DNA of 64,000 bases, taken from NCBI GenBank assembly GCA_958296135.2, contig CATQHZ020000001.1, forward strand, positions 3,072,001-3,136,000, read 5' to 3'. Below are positions 49,380-58,478 of this stretch, one piece after another. This stretch comes from an uncultured Poribacteria bacterium (GTDB taxonomy: Bacteria; Poribacteria; WGA-4E; WGA-3G). The notes under the pieces were generated by a model. That model searched no databases. It was not told the DNA's origin and saw nothing but the letters and a program-made list of their open reading frames with translations. A program made the position numbers and the translations under genes. The stretch's first letter is position 1; each line of letters opens with the position of its first letter.

Positions 49380-50168
49380 TTGACGATGTTGACGCAAGAG
49401 ATGATTCAAGACGTGCCATCGCAACCCGGTGTCTACTTTTTTCGGGGGGCTTCAGGCAAGCTCCTCTACATTGGCAAGGCGAAATGCCTGCGGAAGCGGG
49501 TGCGCTCGTATTTACACAAAAACAAGAGCCGGCCCTCCAAAATCAAACGGCTTGTGCGGTGGACAACCGACGTACGGTATCAGGTCTGCCGTTCGGAGCA
49601 GGAGGCCCTCTTTCTTGAATCGCGTTTGATTAAAGAGCATCAGCCCTCCTATAACTCCGCCTTGAAATATGGGCGGAAGTCGTGGTATATTCGGATAGAT
49701 ATCGGCGAGGATTTTCCGCTCGTGGAGCAAGTCTGCAAGAAAGAAGAAGTGGATGGCGCGAGGTACTTCGGTCCGTTTTCTAGCCGGCGATGGACAGCAG
49801 AAGCGGTTGAGGTTTTCCACCGCATCTTCCCGATACGGACGTGCGCGGGGGCGATTCATCCGTCCTCGGCGTTCCGGCCGTGCTTCAGTTATCATATCAA
49901 ACGGTGCGACGCGCCGTGCGCGGGCTATATCACGCGCACGGCATATCACGCCATGATAGCCGATGTGGTTGGCTTGTTGGAGGGCAATTATGACGCGGTG
50001 TTCGCATCCCTTGTTGCGAAACGGGATAGTGCCGCCGCTGAACTGCAATTTGAACGGGCGGCTGTCTTTCAAAAACAGATTCAGCGCATCCAAAAAGTAT
50101 TTACGTTTTTAGATGTGCATCGGAGCGGGAGGGCTCGGTGCAGTGGCGAGAACTCTATGAGAATCTAG
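49380..50168 (+). CDS. GIY-YIG nuclease (UvrC N-terminal/Cho-like) with UVR domain; last codons come from the IS left end
   Basis: PGVYFF..LYIGKAK.LRKRVRSY, FGPF, C..PC, LQFERAA. Confidence 0.85.
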   Translation: MTMLTQEMIQDVPSQPGVYFFRGASGKLLYIGKAKCLRKRVRSYLHKNKSRPSKIKRLVRWTTDVRYQVCRSEQEALFLESRLIKEHQPSYNSALKYGRKSWYIRIDIGEDFPLVEQVCKKEEVDGARYFGPFSSRRWTAEAVEVFHRIFPIRTCAGAIHPSSAFRPCFSYHIKRCDAPCAGYITRTAYHAMIADVVGLLEGNYDAVFASLVAKRDSAAAELQFERAAVFQKQIQRIQKVFTFLDVHRSGRARCSGENSMRI

Positions 50169-50189
50169 CAGAACCTACCCGAATCTATC

Positions 50190-50279
50190 TCCGATTTTTG
50201 CGCAGTGTCATTCGCAAAGCCGAATGACACATCTTCGGCATGCTTGGCTTTCGCAAGCATGCCTACGCAAAAATCGGCA
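50190..50279. repeat. 90 bp two-hairpin mini-element inserted in the IS left end
   Basis: Absent from copy 2 at the aligned position (aatctatc|gatgtgca); IR ccgatttttgcg/cgcaaaaatcgg. Confidence 0.8.
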
Positions 50280-50294
50280 GATGTGCATTTTTAT

Positions 50295-50323
50295 TTGCAG
50301 TCGGCTTGGATTTGTGGTAGAAT
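50295..50323 (+). promoter_or_regulatory. Sigma70 promoter of tnpB copy 1
   Basis: TTGCAG-17-TAGAAT with extended TG; conserved in copy 2. Confidence 0.75.
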
Positions 50324-50329
50324 GTAGTT

Positions 50330-50416
50330 GCCGTTGGGAGGTGAGACCTACTAAGCGCGGCATCCCGCCGTGTCTCTCACCTCCACCTTACCTGAGTAGG
50401 AAGGAAAAACAACGGC
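50330..50416 (+). ncRNA. Structured tnpB 5' leader RNA, copy 1
   Basis: Four stems plus a long-range pairing, covarying with copy 2. Confidence 0.7.
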
Positions 50417-50431
50417 GAACGGTGACGCTCT

Positions 50432-51667
50432 ATGACATTGAAAACGCATTTAATGGCGTTGGACCCGAATAATAAGCAGGCGACGCTGCTTGCACGACAT
50501 TGTGGTTATGCCCGCGTTGCACGTAACCATGCGCTCTCAGATTTCAAGGCAGGACTCGCCGAAAACGAGTGGCGCAGTGGTTACACATTGAACGTTCGCT
50601 TCAACGCCGTGAAACACGAGACATATCCGTGGTGTAAGGAACTCGACCAACGCGCAGCGAAAAACGCTGTGATGCACATTGATGACGCAGTCAAACGGTG
50701 GCGGCGCGGTCAAAATCGATTCCCACGTTATCACACCCGAGCGAGTAGGACTTCCTACCAACCGCATGAACGTGTGAGAATTGACAGGAATCGCGTCAAA
50801 CTGCCGAAGATAGGCTGGGTTCGGATGCGTGAGAAGTTGCGATGGCGTGGCGAGATTCGGCGGTGTGTCGTCTCAAAACGTGCGGGCAGGTGGTTTCTAT
50901 CGGTTCTCGTGAAGGTGGTTTCCGACAGTGCGCCACGTGTGCGTTCTGAGGCAGCACCTATGCGTGTGGTTGGTGTTGATGTAGGTATCAAGACACTAGC
51001 CGTAACCTCCGATGGTGTTGAGTTTGAAAACCCGAAGGCATTGTATCGATACCTGCGGAAGTTGCGGCGTGCGCAGCGTCAGCTCTCTCGTTCGGTTTAC
51101 CGAAGCAGAAACTGGTATCGGAAGCAGTTCCGCGTGCAGAAGATTCACTATCGTATCTGCTGTCTGCGTGAGGATACACATCATAAGGCAAGCACGGCGA
51201 TTGTAAAGTCGGCTGACGTTCTCGGTATCGAGAGTCTTCGTGTGGCGGGCTTGTTGAAAAACCGCCGTCTTGCGAAGGCGTTGAGCGATGCGTCGTTAAG
51301 CGGTTTCCTGACGATGCTTCGGTATAAGGCGGAGGCGCGTGGCGTTGAGATTATCGAAGCACCGTCGAACTTCCCGTCATCGAAGACGTGCAGTGCTTGC
51401 GGGAATAAAAAGACGAAGTTGTCCCTCTCGGAGCGGACATATCACTGCGAGGCATGTGGCGTGGGTATCGACCGCGACTTGAATGCCGCGCATAACTTAA
51501 GAAACCTCGCCGCTAGCTTGACGGAGAGGCAAAACGGCTGCGGAGCGACTATAAGCCCTCATAGTAGGCACACCTCGTGTGTCTCGGAGGCACGCCGCAT
51601 TGAAACAGCAACTACGACAGATAAGAGGACAGGTCAGCTTAGGATAGATTTGTCCAGAGTATCATAA
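50432..51667 (+). CDS. tnpB: RNA-guided endonuclease TnpB
   Basis: RuvC GVDVG / IESL / DRDLNAA; CSAC..CEAC Zn finger. Confidence 0.93.
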   Translation: MTLKTHLMALDPNNKQATLLARHCGYARVARNHALSDFKAGLAENEWRSGYTLNVRFNAVKHETYPWCKELDQRAAKNAVMHIDDAVKRWRRGQNRFPRYHTRASRTSYQPHERVRIDRNRVKLPKIGWVRMREKLRWRGEIRRCVVSKRAGRWFLSVLVKVVSDSAPRVRSEAAPMRVVGVDVGIKTLAVTSDGVEFENPKALYRYLRKLRRAQRQLSRSVYRSRNWYRKQFRVQKIHYRICCLREDTHHKASTAIVKSADVLGIESLRVAGLLKNRRLAKALSDASLSGFLTMLRYKAEARGVEIIEAPSNFPSSKTCSACGNKKTKLSLSERTYHCEACGVGIDRDLNAAHNLRNLAASLTERQNGCGATISPHSRHTSCVSEARRIETATTTDKRTGQLRIDLSRVS

Positions 51668-51681
51668 GTTCTAGGGAGCGG
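51505..51681 (+). ncRNA. Putative omega/reRNA scaffold, copy 1 (5' boundary approximate)
   Basis: Overlaps the tnpB 3' end up to the right end; positional and partial similarity to copy 2. Confidence 0.55.
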
Positions 51682-51688
51682 GAAATTC

Positions 51689-52009
51689 ATGAGCAAGGCG
51701 GTTCTCGGCGGAAGCGATGGAAGAGCGCGGTGCAAGTGCGGGCGGCTCCGTTATCCGCGCTACCCAGTTTGTCCCAAGTGCTATTATGAAGGCGCGCAGA
51801 AACCGACTTCTCTCAACCCGAGAAAATTGTCGCGCGAGGAACTGCTGAAGATGCAGGTTCCTAAACGGATGCTGCTGCCCGACCGGCAGGAACGCATCCG
51901 GTTTTTAGAGCAGCGATATGGCCCGCAATTACGCGGGCAAGACATCCGTTTTATGAAGAATCCGCAGGTGTACGCGCTCTCCGAACAAGCCGGATATCGG
52001 CGGAGATAA
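51689..52009 (+). CDS. Small Cys-rich hypothetical protein
   Basis: CKC...CPKC; ATG would overlap the restored stop of the upstream nuclease gene. Confidence 0.6.
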   Translation: MSKAVLGGSDGRARCKCGRLRYPRYPVCPKCYYEGAQKPTSLNPRKLSREELLKMQVPKRMLLPDRQERIRFLEQRYGPQLRGQDIRFMKNPQVYALSEQAGYRRR

Positions 52010-52105
52010 ATTAGCGGCTCGCTTTCAAAGCGCGCCTGCCGAGTGTCAAAAAACGTTGTTTCTGGCACATACAAAATTTTGCCCAAAAAAAACTTGCAAG
52101 AAGAC

Positions 52106-52134
52106 TTGACAAATAATTGCATATTTGTTAAAAT
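52106..52134 (+). promoter_or_regulatory. Sigma70 promoter with operator-like inverted repeat
   Basis: TTGACA-17-TAAAAT; ACAAATA-ATTGCA-TATTTGT across the spacer. Confidence 0.75.
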
Positions 52135-52165
52135 AACCAACAAATTATTCAAGGAGGAATTCCTC

Positions 52166-53164
52166 ATGTATATTGCAAGATTAGCGTTGATTTGCATCAT
52201 CGCTTTTGCATTGTCAATGGGTGCTCAGGTGATGGCAACCGAATCGACGGATGCCACACCGGACGCGACCGTTGAAAAAGTGACGCTTAGCGTGACAGGC
52301 ATGACGTGAGGCGGCTGTGTTTCTGCAGTGCAGGGTGCACTCAAGAAAGTCGCCGGTGTCACGGAAGTCGTCAGTGTTTCGTCAGCCGACAATCAGGCTG
52401 TCGTGAAGGTAGAGAAGGGGAAAGTTGACACGGCGGCACTTGTCGCAGCCGTCGAAGCAGACCCGCGCTTCAAAGCCGAGGTTGTTATGCCTAAGCCCGC
52501 GGTTGAAGAAGTGACGCTGAAAGTGACAGGGATGACGTGAGGTGCGTGCACTGCTAAGGTGCAGGATGCACTTGGAAAAGTCGCCGGTGTCACGGAAGTC
52601 ATCAGCGTTTCTACAGACAGCAATACGGCTGTGGTGAAGGTTGAAAAAGACAAAGTCGCCGCTGCCGATTTGACAACCGCTATCAAAGCCGCAGGGTTTA
52701 CCGCGGAAGTGATGCCTATCGCCGAAGTGACGCTGAAAGTGACAGGGATGACGTGAGGTGCGTGCACTACTAAGGTGCAGGATGCACTTGGAAAAGTCGC
52801 CGGTGTCATGGAAGTCATCAGTGTCTCCACAGACAGTAACACGGCTGTGGTGAAGGTTGAAAAAGGCAAGGTCGCGGATGCTGATTTGACAACCGCTGTC
52901 AAAGCCGCAGGATTCACCGCGGAAGTTGTCAAGCCGGAAGTTGAAGAGGTGACGCTGAAAGTAACAGGGATGATGTGTGATGCATGTCCCGCCAAGGTAG
53001 AAGCCGCCCTCGGTAAGGTGGACGGTGTCGCCGAGGTTGTCAGCGTTTCGATGGCGGACAGCACGGCTGTGGTGAAGATCGAGAAGGGGAAAGTGACGAC
53101 AGCTGCCCTCATTGAGGCAGTTGCTGGCGCGCACCCGGGTTTCAAAGCGGAAGTCGCCAAATAG
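52166..53164 (+). CDS. Secreted four-HMA-domain multi-selenoprotein (332 aa; UGA at 52307, 52538, 52754)
   Basis: AAGGAGG RBS; signal peptide; GMT-U-GGC, GMT-U-GAC, GMT-U-GAC, GMMCDAC in one frame; SECIS-like hairpins after each UGA. Confidence 0.88.
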
Positions 53165-53173
53165 CGCGGCACG

Positions 53174-53200
53174 GAAGGATGGGCTTTGCCCGTCTTTTCT
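53174..53200 (+). terminator. Probable intrinsic terminator
   Basis: GAAGGATGGGC-TTT-GCCCGTCTTTTC hairpin with T-rich tail. Confidence 0.6.
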
Positions 53201-53282
53201 TAGTTTGCTGGTAGGCGCGCTTTCAAAGCGCGCCTACCGAAATTCTGGAAAGGAACGCGTTCAGATTCAAGCGGGTGCCTAC

Positions 53283-53585
53283 ATGACGTTCAAAGATATT
53301 CTTCCGCTCATGTTCCCGGTGAGAGCGGTTCATCCGCAGGTGCAAGCCTGGTCTGGCAACCTTGAGCGCGCTGTTTTTCATCTCAGGGACGAGGTTCCGC
53401 CGGAAGTAGAGTGGGTGTGGTTCTTCCATCACGAGGACAGCTGCATCTATAAATTTCAAAGCGTTCGCGGCATCCATCATCAATGGAAAATGGCCGAGGT
53501 CTGCGATGCTGGCACACTGCCGAAGTTCGTAAATCAGAAGGCTTTTGCGGAGATACCGGCGGTGTTTCCGCAAAATAAGCGGTAG
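53283..53585 (+). CDS. Hypothetical protein
   Basis: 100 aa from MTFKDIL; stop provided by a REP GTAG. Confidence 0.5.
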   Translation: MTFKDILPLMFPVRAVHPQVQAWSGNLERAVFHLRDEVPPEVEWVWFFHHEDSCIYKFQSVRGIHHQWKMAEVCDAGTLPKFVNQKAFAEIPAVFPQNKR

Positions 53586-53647
53586 GCGCGGTTTCTCAGC
53601 GTCAATCCCGTAGGCGCGGTTTGAAATCGCGCCTACGGGGTTTTCTG

Positions 53648-54505
53648 TCACTGCTGCGCGTAGAGCGGGTTTTCAAGCAGCGACTGTACCTCGTAAATTG
53701 AACCCTTCTTCTCCGAATAGGGTTCCGGCATCCGCACGGGTGCCGCAACCATGCGCGGCTGGTTCGTCGGTTCACCACGGATGATAAAGTCGTTGAAGCT
53801 ATCCCAATCCGGAATCCCTTTTAGCGGCCACGCATCCACAGCGCAATACTGGAACAGGAGTAAACGCCGCGGCTTATCGGAGGTATTCGGTGCCGAACCG
53901 TGCAACGCTCGGACATGGTGGATGGAAATCCCGCCGGCTTTCAGTTCAACCGGTACCGCTTCCTCCGGCGTGAAATCGGCCTCGGTCACCGCACCGATAA
54001 ACGCGCCGTTTTGGTGATGATTCAAGGTGGGCCCCTTGTGGGAACCGGGGAGTATCATCAGTGCCCCGTTCTCCACCGTCATGTCATCAATGACAACCCC
54101 GACAGCGAGCAGATCATCGTTCGTGTGCGGATAAAACGCCCAATCCTGATGCCATTCCACCGGACTGCCAAACGCCGGATACTTCATATTCAGTTTATGT
54201 CCGTTATACCGGAGCCCGGGCCCGATGAGCTGCTCAACGATGTCCAGAATCTTCGGGTGTCGCAAGGTTCCGTCGTAGACTGAGTGGTAGAGCCCCGGGT
54301 TTTTGATGCGGCGCACACGCGGGTTCGCGGGGGTGTGCCCCGGCTCCAGATCGAAGATGTCGGTATGTTCTGTAACTTCCCTGGATTTCTCGACAAATTC
54401 ATCGGTGACCCGGCGGAGTGCTACGACTTCATCGGCTGTCAGCACTGCTTCAACGCCGAGGTAGCCGTTTTCATTGTAAAAACCGAGTTGTTCTTGAGTG
54501 AGCAT
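53648..54505 (-). CDS. PhyH family dioxygenase
   Basis: EWHQD, LPGSHK, HGSAPN. Confidence 0.88.
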   Translation of the reverse strand: MLTQEQLGFYNENGYLGVEAVLTADEVVALRRVTDEFVEKSREVTEHTDIFDLEPGHTPANPRVRRIKNPGLYHSVYDGTLRHPKILDIVEQLIGPGLRYNGHKLNMKYPAFGSPVEWHQDWAFYPHTNDDLLAVGVVIDDMTVENGALMILPGSHKGPTLNHHQNGAFIGAVTEADFTPEEAVPVELKAGGISIHHVRALHGSAPNTSDKPRRLLLFQYCAVDAWPLKGIPDWDSFNDFIIRGEPTNQPRMVAAPVRMPEPYSEKKGSIYEVQSLLENPLYAQQ

Positions 54506-54673
54506 GGTATCGTTCCTCCTAGAGCTGATAAATCGTGACCGGCAGATCGCTCTTACAGATTAGGACTGACGCAGCAGAGCCCGGGAGGCGTGTTTTATAA
54601 GCGCGCCTACCGGACAGGAATTACGGAATTGCGTAAGTCCTGAGATGATATTTTTATTATACCTCAGTTCTGT

Positions 54674-55921
54674 TTAAAAATTCAACAGTTCCGCATAAAT
54701 TCCCTGCACCTTTTTGACATGCGTCCCAATGCCGAACGCTTCTTCCGCGCGCTTTCGGGCGGCACGCCCCATTTTTTCAGAGAGACGACGGTTCGTGGCA
54801 AGGTGGACAATGCTGTCCGCAATCGCCGCCATTTCGGAACGTAACCGAGTGTTTCCAATGCCGTCTGTCTCCTCAACGGATAACGGCATCACCCACCCCG
54901 TAACGCCATTGACAAGCATCTCTGCGGTGCTGCCGATAGGCGTGCCGATGACAGGCTTCCCGGTAGCCATCGCCTCGGCGATAACACTCCCCGCTGAAAG
55001 TGTGACGAGCAAGTCCAACTCTTGCATTGCCCGCGGCATATCGGCGCAGTGGCCCGTGAACATGAGCCGTTCGTTTAACTGGAGGACTGTCACGAGTTGG
55101 CGGACCTCGCGTTCATACGCGCGATGTTCAGGTGTATTCTCCAACGCCGCCCCGATGATGTGAAAGCGAACGTTTTCGCATTGCGCCGCAACCTGCGCCG
55201 CTATTTCAACGAACGTCTGTTGGCGTTTGAAGGGTTCAATTCTGCCGACTATCCCGACGATAAATGGGCGAATCTCTTGTAGGAGAGACCTCCTGGTCCC
55301 GATGCTTTCGCTTAGGGGCGCCCTCCCTGTCTCGATGCCCACCTCTCGCGAGGACATTTTGCCTGTCTCAATGTCTTCGCTTGGTGGACGAAAAACGGAC
55401 AAATCCACACAATTCAGGATAACCTCTATCCTTTCAGGAGGGATGCCGGCTTGGAGCAGCGGTTGCTTGCTCTGTTCGGAGATAGCGATGATGCAGTCCA
55501 TCCGATCAAAGTTGTATTTCCGCACCTGCGCTGGCGTAAGAAGATTTCGTACGTGCGAAACGACTGGTATGTTCAACTGCTTTTTGAGTTGCCACACATA
55601 AGGGTTCAGCCACGAATCGGAGGTATGCACCAATTGCGCGTTGTGCGCTTTCGCGAGGGCGGCAAGTTTTGCGGCTGCGCTGTGCCGCGCGATGCGCGAT
55701 TTTGCCTTGCGCCACGGCGGCAGCGCGAGAATTGTTGTCGGTGTGTTCGCACGCCTTAACTGCTCGGCGAAAACGCCATCGTCTGGGCAGACGACGAGCG
55801 GCTGATAGCGTTCCTTGTCTACGTTTGTGACGAGGTAATAGAGCTGCCTTTCGCCCCCGCCGATGCTGGAGCCGCAATGGCTGAGGTAAAGAATGGGGGT
55901 TGCAGGAAGTTTTTTTGGCAT
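54674..55921 (-). CDS. Glycosyltransferase family 4
   Basis: GGGERQ, GRIEPFKRQ, EAMATGKPVI. Confidence 0.88.
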   Translation of the reverse strand: MPKKLPATPILYLSHCGSSIGGGERQLYYLVTNVDKERYQPLVVCPDDGVFAEQLRRANTPTTILALPPWRKAKSRIARHSAAAKLAALAKAHNAQLVHTSDSWLNPYVWQLKKQLNIPVVSHVRNLLTPAQVRKYNFDRMDCIIAISEQSKQPLLQAGIPPERIEVILNCVDLSVFRPPSEDIETGKMSSREVGIETGRAPLSESIGTRRSLLQEIRPFIVGIVGRIEPFKRQQTFVEIAAQVAAQCENVRFHIIGAALENTPEHRAYEREVRQLVTVLQLNERLMFTGHCADMPRAMQELDLLVTLSAGSVIAEAMATGKPVIGTPIGSTAEMLVNGVTGWVMPLSVEETDGIGNTRLRSEMAAIADSIVHLATNRRLSEKMGRAARKRAEEAFGIGTHVKKVQGIYAELLNF

Positions 55922-56037
55922 TCTGGGAGTGGCGAGGGACAGGCCCTCGCGCTACGGTGAAAAGGGCTCGGTGCAGTGGCGATAACTCTATGAGATACTA
56001 GGATAACCTACCCTAATCTATCGATGTGCATTTTGAC

Positions 56038-56066
56038 TTGCATTCGGCTTGATTTTGTGGTATAAT
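56038..56066 (+). promoter_or_regulatory. Sigma70 promoter of tnpB copy 2
   Basis: TTGCAT-17-TATAAT with extended TG. Confidence 0.8.
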
Positions 56067-56073
56067 ATAGTTA

Positions 56074-56154
56074 CCGTTGGGGGCGAGACTGCTAGGCGCG
56101 GCTTCCCGCCGTGTCTCTCGCCCCACCTATCTAGCAGCAGGTGACAACCAACGG
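56074..56154 (+). ncRNA. Structured tnpB 5' leader RNA, copy 2
   Basis: Same fold as 50330-50416 with compensatory changes. Confidence 0.7.
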
Positions 56155-56167
56155 GAACGGTGACGCT

Positions 56168-57391
56168 ATGGCACTACGAGCCCAGAAGATAGCACTCCAT
56201 CCAACTGAGGAACAGGTCGAGGCATTTAACCTGCATGTGGCATTCGCACGCGCTGCATATAATGCCGCGCATTCTGATTGGAACGCCGACCGCCGTAACT
56301 CCCTCTACGATTTGAAGAAAATCTTCAACTCACGGAAGCGGCAGGTGTTCCCCGAATTCGCCGCGTGTTCTCAAAACGCAGGCAAGAATGCTATCCACGC
56401 TTTCGGTGATGCTATCGCCAGATACAAATCGGGACAGAATGGTGCGCCCAAACGGAAGACGCATAAATCCACACCTGCTTTTCAGATGGACAATGGCGTG
56501 GATACCGTCAAAATAACGGAGGACAGCAAACATGTCGTTCTCCCGACAATTGGACAGGTTAGGTTGCATGAACCCCCTCGATGGACAGGTGAAGTTCGCC
56601 GTGCTTTCGTCAAGCGAATCGCACATCGTTGGTATCTCAGCATCCTTGTCGACGTTAATGAACCGGAACCGCCCGACACGTCAGCACTGCCCCCTGCAGG
56701 TTGTGATGTCGGCATCTCTGCCCTCGCCACGATGGACGATGGCACTGTCTATGAAAATCCGCGTGCCTTGCGCGTCAATGAACGCAAACTACGCCGCGCC
56801 AATAAGGCACTCTCCCGCAAGACGTTCCTGAGCAAAAACTGGTGGCAGGCGAAGGAATGCCTCGCCCGCCTGCATGCCCGTATCGCCAATGTCCGAACCG
56901 ATGCGCATCATCAGGCAACACATCGCATCCTGCAAGGTATTTCGGCACTTGGCATCGAAAGCCTCACCGTGAAAGGTTTGATGAAAAATCGCAAGCTGAG
57001 CAAGGCACTCGCGGACGCAAGCCTCGGTGGTTTTCTCGTCAAACTTAAATACAAAGCGGTGCGCCGGGGTATCCGTATTGTGTCAGCAGATGAGTTCTGG
57101 CCGTCAACACAGCGATGCAGTTCTTGTGGATACATTAAGCGTGGTGAATTCAAGCTGTCCCTGAAGGACAGAGAATACCATTGCGGTGTGTGTGGTTTCA
57201 TAGAAGATAGAGACGTTAACGCAGCTATAAACCTTCGACAGCTCGCCTCCAGCACGGAGGAGAGTCTAAACGCCTGTGGAGAAGCCGTAACACCAACTGC
57301 GGTTGGCTGGCATCACAACCCGCGTGTGCGCGGAAGAAGCAGGAAACCGCTAACCTCTCAGAGACTCATAGACTTCGCACATGCTAGATAA
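56168..57391 (+). CDS. tnpB: RNA-guided endonuclease TnpB
   Basis: GCDVG / IESL / DRDVNAA; Zn finger; ATG 56168 aligns with the copy 1 start. Confidence 0.93.
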   Translation: MALRAQKIALHPTEEQVEAFNLHVAFARAAYNAAHSDWNADRRNSLYDLKKIFNSRKRQVFPEFAACSQNAGKNAIHAFGDAIARYKSGQNGAPKRKTHKSTPAFQMDNGVDTVKITEDSKHVVLPTIGQVRLHEPPRWTGEVRRAFVKRIAHRWYLSILVDVNEPEPPDTSALPPAGCDVGISALATMDDGTVYENPRALRVNERKLRRANKALSRKTFLSKNWWQAKECLARLHARIANVRTDAHHQATHRILQGISALGIESLTVKGLMKNRKLSKALADASLGGFLVKLKYKAVRRGIRIVSADEFWPSTQRCSSCGYIKRGEFKLSLKDREYHCGVCGFIEDRDVNAAINLRQLASSTEESLNACGEAVTPTAVGWHHNPRVRGRSRKPLTSQRLIDFAHAR

Positions 57392-57431
57392 GTCTATATT
57401 TGACGAGATGCTCATAGGTTATGTAGTGCGG
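57240..57431 (+). ncRNA. Putative omega/reRNA scaffold, copy 2 (5' boundary approximate)
   Basis: taaacgcctgtggaga...gaagcaggaa pattern typical of tnpB 3' ends. Confidence 0.6.
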
Positions 57432-57488
57432 TGAATTTCGTCAGGCGGATATAGAAACCCGCCATGACAAATCGGCGAAATGTTAGTA

Positions 57489-58478
57489 TTAAACCGGAAA
57501 AATCAGTTTTTGCTCTAAGAAAACTTGGCTGACCGAACGGTGGTGATGAATCCGCAGAATCGCCTCGGCGAGCAGTGGTGCGATGGAAAGCACCTTGATT
57601 TTCCCATTCAGTTCTTTCTCCGGCGGAATAGGAATCGTGTTGGTTGTGACGACTTCCCGGATCGCTGGATGTTTCAATCGCTCTAAGGCCGGTCCGACGA
57701 GGACAGCGTGCGCGATGCTAATGTATGCCGGATTTGCCCCTGCTTCCGCGAGTGCTTTTGCCTGCTGATAGATGCTTCCGCCCGTGGCAATCTCATCGTC
57801 GATAACGATAGGGGTTTTGCCTGCAACGTCCCCAACTAATTCGACGAATTCTACCTGTTGTCCATCAACACCGCCGCGCCGCTTGTGCATGATGGCTAGC
57901 GGCAGGCCGAGGATGCCGGCGTATTTCTCCGCCAGTTTCGCGCGTCCAGCGTCCGGGGCGACGACGACACCGTTTTCAACCACCTGTTTCTCTTTGAAAT
58001 AGTTGGCCAGGGTCGTGACGGCTGTCAGATGATCCAAGGGGATATCAAAGAACGCTTGGATCTGCGGGACGTGCAAATCGATGGCGATGACGCGACTTGC
58101 GCCTGCGGTTGTCAAGAGATTCGCGACCAGTTTCGCGCTAATCGGTTCGCGTCCTGTCGTCTTGTGGTCCTGCCGTGCGTATCCGAAATAGGGGATGATT
58201 GCGGTAATCTGCCGCGCCGAGGCCCGCTTCATTGCGTCAATCGTGATGAGCAGTTCCATCAAGGTTTCGTTAGCGGGTTCGCACGTTGGCTGGACGAGAT
58301 AGATATCTGTCCCGCGAATGCTTTCCTCAATCTGGACTCGAGTTTCGCTATTAGGAAAAGGTCCGATTGAAATTTTTCCGAGTTCAACACCTAGGGTTGC
58401 GGCGATTTCTTGTGCTAGTGCCGGGTTTGCGCGTCCGGCGAAGAGCCTGAAATCTCCGCGCACTTTCTGGTCAATCAT
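57489..58478 (-). CDS. prs: Ribose-phosphate pyrophosphokinase
   Basis: PYFGYARQD, DLHVPQIQ, APDAGR, IDDEIATGGS. Confidence 0.95.
   Translation of the reverse strand: MIDQKVRGDFRLFAGRANPALAQEIAATLGVELGKISIGPFPNSETRVQIEESIRGTDIYLVQPTCEPANETLMELLITIDAMKRASARQITAIIPYFGYARQDHKTTGREPISAKLVANLLTTAGASRVIAIDLHVPQIQAFFDIPLDHLTAVTTLANYFKEKQVVENGVVVAPDAGRAKLAEKYAGILGLPLAIMHKRRGGVDGQQVEFVELVGDVAGKTPIVIDDEIATGGSIYQQAKALAEAGANPAYISIAHAVLVGPALERLKHPAIREVVTTNTIPIPPEKELNGKIKVLSIAPLLAEAILRIHHHRSVSQVFLEQKLIFPV

Follow-up and report, generated by a model that had tools for sequence, protein, structure and literature searches.

Which task falls to a structured RNA that stands between the promoter and the start codon of two tnpB genes? 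The question is raised by a stretch of 64,000 nucleotides (nt) from an uncultured Poribacteria bacterium (NCBI GenBank assembly GCA_958296135.2, contig CATQHZ020000001.1, positions 3,072,001 to 3,136,000 of the forward strand), which we call the window and number from its first letter. Candidatus Poribacteria are sponge symbionts, and the window holds two transposons of the IS607 type that lack the gene tnpA. The first-pass annotation of these letters described one fold at 50330-50416 and again at 56074-56154, where IS607 normally has tnpA, and offered a translational autoregulator, a riboswitch-like switch, a ribozyme or an accessory RNA as explanations. By following the motif through its own genome, through related genomes and against catalogued RNA families, we arrive at a reading to which we give an even chance: the motif would be an uncatalogued, lineage-restricted 5' leader RNA that acts in cis as a gate on translation. 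It is probably an instrument of general translation control rather than a partner RNA of TnpB.

One fold in two leaders

The claim of a shared fold stands, every helix named for the two copies having been found in its place; the helix positions below were read from the sequence.

50330-50416, + strand: leader RNA copy A (P1 to P4 and pseudoknot, 87 nt)
50330-50336 / 50410-50416, + strand: P1 of copy A, its 3' strand being the first of two copies
50337-50346 / 50375-50384, + strand: P2 of copy A
50355-50361 / 50367-50373, + strand: P3 hairpin of copy A
50386-50389 / 50401-50404, + strand: P4 of copy A
50347-50352 / 50395-50400, + strand: long-range pair (pseudoknot) of copy A, its 3' arm within the P4 loop
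56074-56154, + strand: leader RNA copy B (P1 to P4 and pseudoknot, 81 nt)
56074-56079 / 56149-56154, + strand: P1 of copy B
56080-56088 / 56116-56124, + strand: P2 of copy B
56096-56102 / 56108-56114, + strand: P3 of copy B
56125-56128 / 56139-56142, + strand: P4 of copy B
56089-56095 / 56131-56137, + strand: long-range pair (pseudoknot) of copy B

In the full listing of parts the 5' pseudoknot arm of copy A spans 50347-50354; this copy also has a bulged C at 50374 and an A-rich junction at 50405-50409. Helices P1 to P4 are recovered in the minimum-free-energy (MFE) folds of both copies, each taken alone, with z-scores of -6.75 (copy A) and -4.24 (copy B), and in either case none of 200 shuffles was equally stable. 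The architecture is that of a three-way junction closed by P1, with P2 stacked on the variable P3 hairpin and P4 as a further hairpin; a pseudoknot of 8 base pairs (bp) ties the internal loop between P2 and P3 to the P4 loop, locking the fold. The leader measures about 80-90 nt, and a model match about 100-110 nt when a second P1 strand (described below) and the ATG are included. Alignment of the copies shows more in common than had been noted at first, namely a block of about 60 nt further upstream and the promoter.

Copies in the genome and covariation among relatives

Where two copies had been the only support, there are now 21 full and 2 reduced copies in the same genome (5.19 Mb in 4 contigs, 53.9% G+C) and about 600 matches in 91 of the 112 genomes of the family. 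The 21 full copies, found by BLAST with either window leader, precede tnpB genes of family A (n = 10) or family B (n = 11), which have no mutual DNA similarity and share only a left end of about 60 nt and a promoter-plus-leader region of about 150 nt. Three leader types can be told apart (n = 9, 4 and 8), with pseudoknot arms CCTACTAAG/CTTAGTAGG, CATCCAAG/CTTGGATG and CTGCTAG/CTAGCAG. Between these types P2, P4 and the long-range pair vary in sequence and keep their complementarity, so that the compensatory changes proposed from two copies are seen across all three. The types are shuffled with respect to tnpB families A and B (loci L001-L021), two family-B genes having a type-1 leader, and because leader type does not follow gene family, the 5' module appears to have been recombined or exchanged between elements.

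The two reduced copies, found with a more general covariance model, stand before a third TnpB family of 359-360 amino acids (aa):

G000:C1:961313-961401, - strand: reduced leader
G000:C1:1521835-1521923, + strand: reduced leader

In these P3 is almost gone, the P4 loop has 6 nt and the conserved loop residues are missing; P1, P2, P4, a 6-bp pseudoknot and both 3' copies of the P1 strand are retained, which makes the pair useful for defining a minimal core.

Covariance model R1, made from the 21 copies, was run on 60 related genomes and returned 14 diverged matches in 10 of them, and the model rebuilt from these (R2) gave the roughly 600 matches (150 listed and 448 further) in the window's own family, its own genome included. 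Genomes with an R2 match are distributed as follows:

Genus g5: 64 of 65
Genus g2: 23 of 40
Phylum sample, family f1: 79 of 99
Phylum sample, family f3: 6 of 26
Phylum sample, seven other families: 0 of 25

Base pairing was counted in a sample of 101 sequences, made up of the loci returned by the searches together with 60 regions from the top of the match list. In this alignment, which was fitted by the model and for the nested helices leans towards structure, 95.2% of 3223 cells form standard pairs, against 71.5% in column shuffles and 36.5-56.9% with slid partners, and in 29 of 33 pairs both partners vary; an earlier count on 41 sequences had given 95.9% of cells paired, both-sided changes in 23 of 26 pairs, and 32.5-51.2% in slid controls. 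The seven pseudoknot pairs lie outside the model fit, and their count is therefore free of that bias: 95.4% are paired, five of the seven change on both sides, and cognate arms reach -10.75 kcal/mol against -3.81 for non-cognate ones. Strong covariation in a larger alignment, on which the annotation had made the RNA depend, is thus present. Some G-U pairs are near-invariant (96 of 101 at the base of P3, for example), and because they would be C-A mismatches on the other strand, the structure belongs to the sense strand. A few unpaired positions are nearly as constant: the bulged C (94 of 101), a loop A (99) and the central A's of the UAAA junction (99 and 96).

Wider searches add little to this range. 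No match was obtained when a plasmid collection was searched by blastn with the left end and leader, and a scan of viral contigs with one exact pattern for the commonest leader type gave a single stretch that the covariance model did not confirm, so that this one pattern offers no evidence of a phage link. Searching the contigs of other genomes with the family-A TnpB gave one distant locus (31% identity, in a Hyphomicrobium metagenome-assembled genome) that lacks the motif (best model E-value 2.2). Photo_RC has no match in the genome, which accordingly lacks genes for photosynthetic reaction centres, and a cyanobacterial origin was rejected on this ground.

Promoter linkage and position in the transcript

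The leaders follow sigma-70-type promoters closely:

50294-50323, + strand: sigma-70-type promoter of copy A (-35 TTGCAG at 50295-50300, TGn, -10 TAGAAT at 50318-50323; entered in the promoter scan as TTTGCA-18-TAGAAT with TG, 50294-50323)
56038-56066, + strand: promoter of copy B, read from the sequence (TTGCAT, 17-nt spacer, TGnTATAAT, -10 at 56061-56066)

The pattern TTGNNN-N16-18-TANNNT occurs in register upstream of 86 of the 101 motifs, as compared with 18 of 1761 random positions in the same loci, and 73 of these 86 have the extended TGn as well. The first nucleotide of P1 falls 6-9 nt past the -10 box in 83 of the 86, where transcription is expected to start. At the other end, 77 of the 101 matches have their ATG at one and the same position of the model (the motif ends about 15 nt before it), and the promoter scan found no promoter-like site between motif and ATG and no terminator after the motif. 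Promoter register, fixed distance to the ATG and G-U pairs together bear out the placement of the motif between promoter and start codon, as a structured RNA of the sense strand.

These observations also bear on a self-cleaving ribozyme or a processed stand-alone small RNA, for which the compact pseudoknotted fold has a suitable size. The missing terminator and the fixed distance to the ATG are what a cis leader would have, it is not obvious why a motif with which the transcript begins should cleave itself, and a search of the Rfam ribozyme models at E up to 10 gave no match. Nothing points to the ribozyme that had been listed among the first explanations, and we consider this the least probable account of all, with hardly any weight.

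As a separate observation, the + strand between elements A and B has a near-consensus promoter (TTGACA-17-TAAAAT with TG, 11 of 12 positions) at 52106-52134, which is not followed by the leader motif.

Genes behind the leader

Within the window's genome the motif would pass for a second RNA dedicated to TnpB, either an accessory RNA bound by the protein or an operator for translational autoregulation: TnpB binds structured RNA, and all 23 copies, full and reduced, are followed by tnpB genes of three families. This association disappears when relatives are examined. Behind the 101 matches stand the following:

Proteins of 90-160 aa with a hydrophobic N-terminus, a coiled coil and a second hydrophobic helix: 45 of 101 matches
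Open reading frames (ORFs) of at least 350 aa: 23 of 101
Other ORFs of 60-349 aa: 16 of 101
ORFs of less than 60 aa: 4 of 101
No ATG-started ORF by the rule applied: 13 of 101

When the 84 distinct ORFs of at least 60 aa behind the leader were scanned against Pfam, OrfB_IS605 was found in 20, N6_N4 methylase in four, D12 methylase in one, GIY-YIG in two (one with NUMOD3) and BglII endonuclease in one, and many genomes of genus g5 carry the motif mostly before genes other than tnpB. The leader is therefore not specific to TnpB, as methylases, GIY-YIG and BglII nucleases and small membrane proteins follow it too. A guide RNA would be strictly associated with tnpB and would come from the 3' or right end, whereas only those 20 of 84 ORFs are TnpB and the motif lies 5', between promoter and tnpB start, far from the guide-forming right end. 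We thus set aside the idea of an accessory RNA or TnpB autoregulator, which now appears very improbable.

The small membrane proteins form a large paralogous family of 103-152 aa (about 120 aa; L024, L035, L063, L119 and many others), with a hydrophobic N-terminus, a coiled coil, a second hydrophobic helix and a C-terminal coiled coil ending in ...QQQIVRP. In g5 their genes follow the leader more often than any others, frequently with several in one genome and sometimes in tandem, as at L119, where tandem leaders are 635 nt apart. No Pfam or NCBIfam family was assigned to them; look-alikes proposed by a protein language model, which serve as a lead only, are mostly labelled Candidatus Poribacteria.

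Two partners for one strand before the start codon

The 3' strand of P1 is duplicated. In the window the second copies are placed as follows:

50418-50426, + strand: second copy of the P1 3' strand, copy A (AACGGTGAC), containing GGTGA and 5 nt before the ATG at 50432
56156-56164, + strand: second copy of the P1 3' strand, copy B (AACGGTGAC), 3 nt before the ATG at 56168

The same arrangement recurs in every leader type, a second segment complementary to the 5' strand coming 2-5 nt after the 3' strand of P1 (for example AACGG..AACGG, AACTGG..ACTGG, ACGTGAT ACGTGAT, ACGCGAT ACGCGAT and CCGTGAG CCGTGA). Across 29 types of 5' strand, cognate P1 pairing averages -9.03 kcal/mol against -3.92 for non-cognate strands, and pairing with the second segment, here called P1', -7.26 against -3.68; P1' frequently extends 1-3 nt further 5' than P1. 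At L036 the two 3' copies differ (GCTGTGA and ACCGTGA) and both pair with the 5' strand, which argues that selection acts on the pairing and not on the identity of the repeat. This duplicated and covarying strand lends support to one of the first explanations, that of a riboswitch-like translational switch, which remains viable.

The balance between the two helices was computed in 77 sequences, the 24 of the 101 without the canonical ATG position being left out; in this set the second copy ends 5-9 nt upstream of the ATG. When one copy was blocked in turn, the ensemble energies of the P1 and P1' conformers differed by +1.06 +/- 1.89 kcal/mol, and the MFE fold chose P1 in 51 sequences and P1' in 19. 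We envisage that the 5'-terminal strand may pair with either of the two tandem segments. Pairing with the first (P1) would close the junction and leave the ribosome-binding region single-stranded, so that translation is on, and pairing with the second (P1') would bury the region before the ATG and turn translation off, the pseudoknotted core tipping the near-even balance between them. Such a gate could be self-contained, being set by the folding state or by the 5' end of the RNA, such that, for example, only transcripts from the element's own promoter are translated. We favour a self-contained gate over a metabolite sensor, which is less likely, because the fold begins at the 5' end of the transcript and because the downstream genes have no common metabolic theme. 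In some types, moreover, P1' can be lengthened by pairing with nucleotides that precede the likely start. Transcripts reading in from outside would thereby be silenced, which also counts for a self-contained gate.

Whether the second segment mimics a Shine-Dalgarno (SD) sequence was considered as well. The 16S tail of this genome is GGATCACCTCCTTTCT, and the window copies, with GGTGA in the second segment, have a predicted anti-SD pairing of -7.4 to -10.6 kcal/mol. As a general feature the mimic was rejected, since the sample as a whole behaves much like its shuffles; it holds for window-type leaders only. For this reason we speak of occlusion of the ribosome-binding region and not of a defined SD.

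Several points weigh against a translational gate. The MFE fold uses neither closing helix in 7 of the 77 sequences, and some members have a weak P1' helix of no more than -2.7 or -2.8 kcal/mol. Anti-SD pairing across the sample is -5.11 kcal/mol, compared with -4.57 in shuffled sequences. The switch is purely computational, and nearest-neighbour energies ignore the pseudoknot and tertiary contacts. The 101 sequences are the higher-scoring, non-random part of the roughly 600 matches, and related members among them are not independent. The start site of the leader, and even its expression, are deduced from a promoter consensus, and the promoter scan listed the promoter of copy A and not that of copy B, which it missed because the -35 box matches at only 3 of 6 positions, the -10 with TG being perfect. 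Lastly, the downstream genes have no obvious common physiological theme from which a signal could be named.

The main rival, possible though well short of probable, is a constitutive leader without switching, whose fold would guard the mRNA from 5'-end-dependent decay and insulate the ribosome-binding region, the second copy serving as a back-up partner. With P1 at the predicted transcription start, the 5' end is paired in either conformer; few unpaired positions are strongly conserved; the reduced form, without P3 and the loop residues, keeps P1, P2, P4, the pseudoknot and both 3' copies; and a stabiliser would suit functionally diverse genes. A simple terminal hairpin would do the same work, however, and the upkeep of an 8-bp pseudoknot through more than 10 compensatory variants suggests something more. 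Moreover, the complementarity of the second copy is maintained across the ribosome-binding region, and a permanent helix there would come at a cost.

A true riboswitch or protein-binding sensor is distinctly less probable. Here the junction would be an aptamer for a small molecule, an ion or a protein, and binding would stabilise P1 and free the ribosome-binding region. As expected of a riboswitch, there is a covarying aptamer-like fold and, by prediction, mutually exclusive pairing at the ribosome-binding site; the three-part design (5' strand, decoy and strand over the ribosome site), the near-isoenergetic conformers and the several nearly invariant junction and loop positions would fit too. 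A common pathway or transport theme is absent downstream, however, and there is no evident ligand that TnpB, methylases, nucleases and unassigned membrane proteins would have in common. Nucleotide conservation is weak evidence here, since a single phylum-level lineage supplies all the sequences, and the reduced variant lacks the conserved loop residues. The translational gate remains the reading that we prefer.

A leader in the place of tnpA

The surroundings of the two leaders suggest how tnpB came to have them. The elements consist of the following further parts:

50131-50189, + strand: left end (LE) of tnpA-less IS607-type element A; homology starts GGGCTCGGTGCAG and aligns to the LE of the tnpA-bearing copy
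50190-50282, + strand: 93-nt hairpin-rich insert in element A, like a miniature inverted-repeat transposable element (MITE), delimited by blastn; not part of the leader and absent from copy B
50432-51667, + strand: tnpB of family A, 411 aa (OrfB_IS605, Cas12f1-like TNB, helix-turn-helix; guided_TnpB at 269.9 bits, above the cut-off)
51668-51681, + strand: right end of element A, ending ...GGGAGCGG
55964-56022, + strand: left end of element B, from the alignment of copies
56168-57391, + strand: tnpB of family B, 407 aa from the ATG; the ORF listing starts this frame at GTG 56141, inside the leader
57392-57431, + strand: right end of element B, ending ...GTAGTGCGG; it shares 88% identity with that of the tnpA-bearing copy

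IS607 elements have a GG core dinucleotide at both junctions and lack terminal inverted repeats or hairpin ends (bioRxiv 10.1101/2023.11.20.567912). The tnpB-bearing units here start GGGCTCGGTGCAG (GGGCTC) and end GCGG, the boundaries within G runs not being exactly fixed; their flanks are mutually unrelated, with no conserved 4-5-nt target. A GG core and apparently absent inverted repeats would be in keeping with IS607. In IS607 tnpA, which encodes a serine recombinase, lies upstream of tnpB and overlaps it, an arrangement that is absent in both window copies and present at L135. There are three ORFs with a Resolvase domain in the genome, of which one, at L135, is an IS607-type tnpA; this locus (L135:1205-3236; G000:C1, about 3725810-3727840) is the only tnpA-bearing IS607 copy in the genome. 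Its tnpA has a MerR-like helix-turn-helix followed by the catalytic Resolvase domain in a different frame, and so appears frameshifted, and it overlaps a family-B-like tnpB.

Comparison of this copy with those in the window upholds the claim that the motif takes IS607's tnpA position. The LE aligns and 15 nt around the -10 box are identical (TGTGGTATAATATAG); homology breaks just past the -10 block, at the predicted transcription start, beyond which one has the tnpA ATG and the others the leader. At L135 the tnpA ATG comes 8 nt past the -10 box, so that this mRNA would be nearly leaderless. The break at the transcription start shows that tnpA has been exchanged, as a module, for a portable leader close to the promoter. 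Where tnpA is missing, the leader may provide tnpB with the translation start that it would otherwise gain from the overlap with tnpA.

The right ends extend only 14 nt (A) and 40 nt (B) beyond the tnpB stop, so that the coding region would have to contain nearly all of any guide-RNA scaffold. At the right-end regions 51600-51681 and 57340-57431 no Rfam family matched, RAGATH-18 being presumably among the entries without a match.

Other repeats were seen around these elements. The 93-nt insert of element A lies between LE and promoter, folds into a branched hairpin (-48.4 kcal/mol) and looks like a MITE or a mobile repeat of the repetitive extragenic palindromic (REP) type; of its 25 blastn matches in the genome, three are identical, and these three occupy the same position in family-A tnpB elements. 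A perfect GC-rich palindrome at 53607-53640 (CCCGTAGGCGCG...CGCGCCTACGGG), in which Rfam gave only a chance microRNA hit, has at least 150 blastn matches genome-wide, and palindromes like it lie beside several tnpB insertions and also beside the tnpA-bearing IS607 copy. Two ORFs with a Y1_Tnp domain occur in the genome and could be the transposases of these palindromes. The leader fold itself was also considered as a DNA hairpin for a Y1 transposase; the IS607-like elements, the register of the fold with the promoter and its reliance on G-U pairs ruled this out.

Relation to known RNAs

Rfam 15, whose listing includes IS605-orfB-I (RF03065) and HEARO (RF02033) (PMC11701678), gave no match in the whole window at gathering thresholds, nothing on the motif when 50000-57600 was searched at E up to 10, and none in 20 related loci (51,143 bases) at E up to 1. 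The families compared took in group I introns, known riboswitches and ribozymes as well. The motif had not been recognised at first reading, and the Rfam search then proposed leaves it without a family. The literature searched contains no description of it, including the main text of Weinberg 2017 (PMC5737381), whose motif-listing supplements might bear on novelty. As far as checked, the RNA family is new and its general kind is known: it is a 5' leader that is structured, acts in cis and can pair in alternative ways. Its architecture is unusual. A Poribacteria-1 RNA motif has been described; if it is in Rfam, it has no match here.

Among RNAs encoded within the same transposon, the omega RNAs or reRNAs of TnpB, including the RAGATH-18-derived RNAs of IS607 TnpBs (PMC11061315), are likewise non-coding and arise at the 3' or right end and run into the flank, whereas the present RNA is 5', after LE and promoter, without an adjacent guide. 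It begins about 200 nt (copy A) or 110 nt (copy B) inside the left end, and because these 110-200 nt, promoter included, separate it from the transposon end, the leader cannot take a guide from the flank, unlike HEARO. HEARO, the equivalent of the guide (omega) RNA of IscB, is also pseudoknotted and upstream of a nuclease gene of the IS200/IS605 type; the present RNA is much smaller, and has no match in Rfam. The IS605-orfB-I and -II motifs are structured RNAs adjoining tnpB (orfB) that were likewise found by comparative genomics, whereas our motif, again without an Rfam match, is not confined to tnpB.

Closer parallels are found among leaders that control translation. The transposase mRNAs of the insertion sequences IS10, IS50 and IS200 have leaders that sequester the ribosome-binding site ("fold-back inhibition"); there, too, an upstream segment of a 5' leader can pair over the ribosome-binding region, and like them the present leader might discriminate own from read-through transcripts. 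It differs in being a pseudoknotted three-way junction with a decoy copy, and in serving non-transposon genes also. In translational riboswitches with P1 switching, e.g. the purine or THF-I three-way junctions with loop-loop or loop-junction pseudoknots, a pseudoknot-locked three-way junction similarly sets a closing helix against a ribosome-site helix, with near-isoenergetic conformers (predicted here); in contrast to these, the set of genes behind the present leader is not metabolic and no known aptamer model matches.

Implications

The first-pass annotation has thus been confirmed in what it observed and supported in part in how it read it, a role specific to TnpB being the part that falls away. 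The RNA fold is, as far as checked, new, a pseudoknotted three-way junction with about 600 matches, very strong covariation and a built-in decoy. A bolder reading, which we think unlikely, is that of a new sensory RNA class, either a riboswitch or a switch that responds to a protein or an ion. In it one signal would govern selfish DNA-acting genes (TnpB, restriction-modification, homing-type nucleases) and small membrane proteins of a little-studied lineage, and the tnpA-less TnpB elements would have captured a host switch by which to time their expression.

For the elements themselves, the leader swap bears on how the abundant stand-alone tnpB genes get translated and are possibly restrained. 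The leader illustrates how transposons and host genes exchange a module; it is less exciting than a dedicated second TnpB RNA would be. Should one RNA fold indeed control nucleases, methylases and transposon genes alike, mobile elements would have borrowed a host module, or the reverse.

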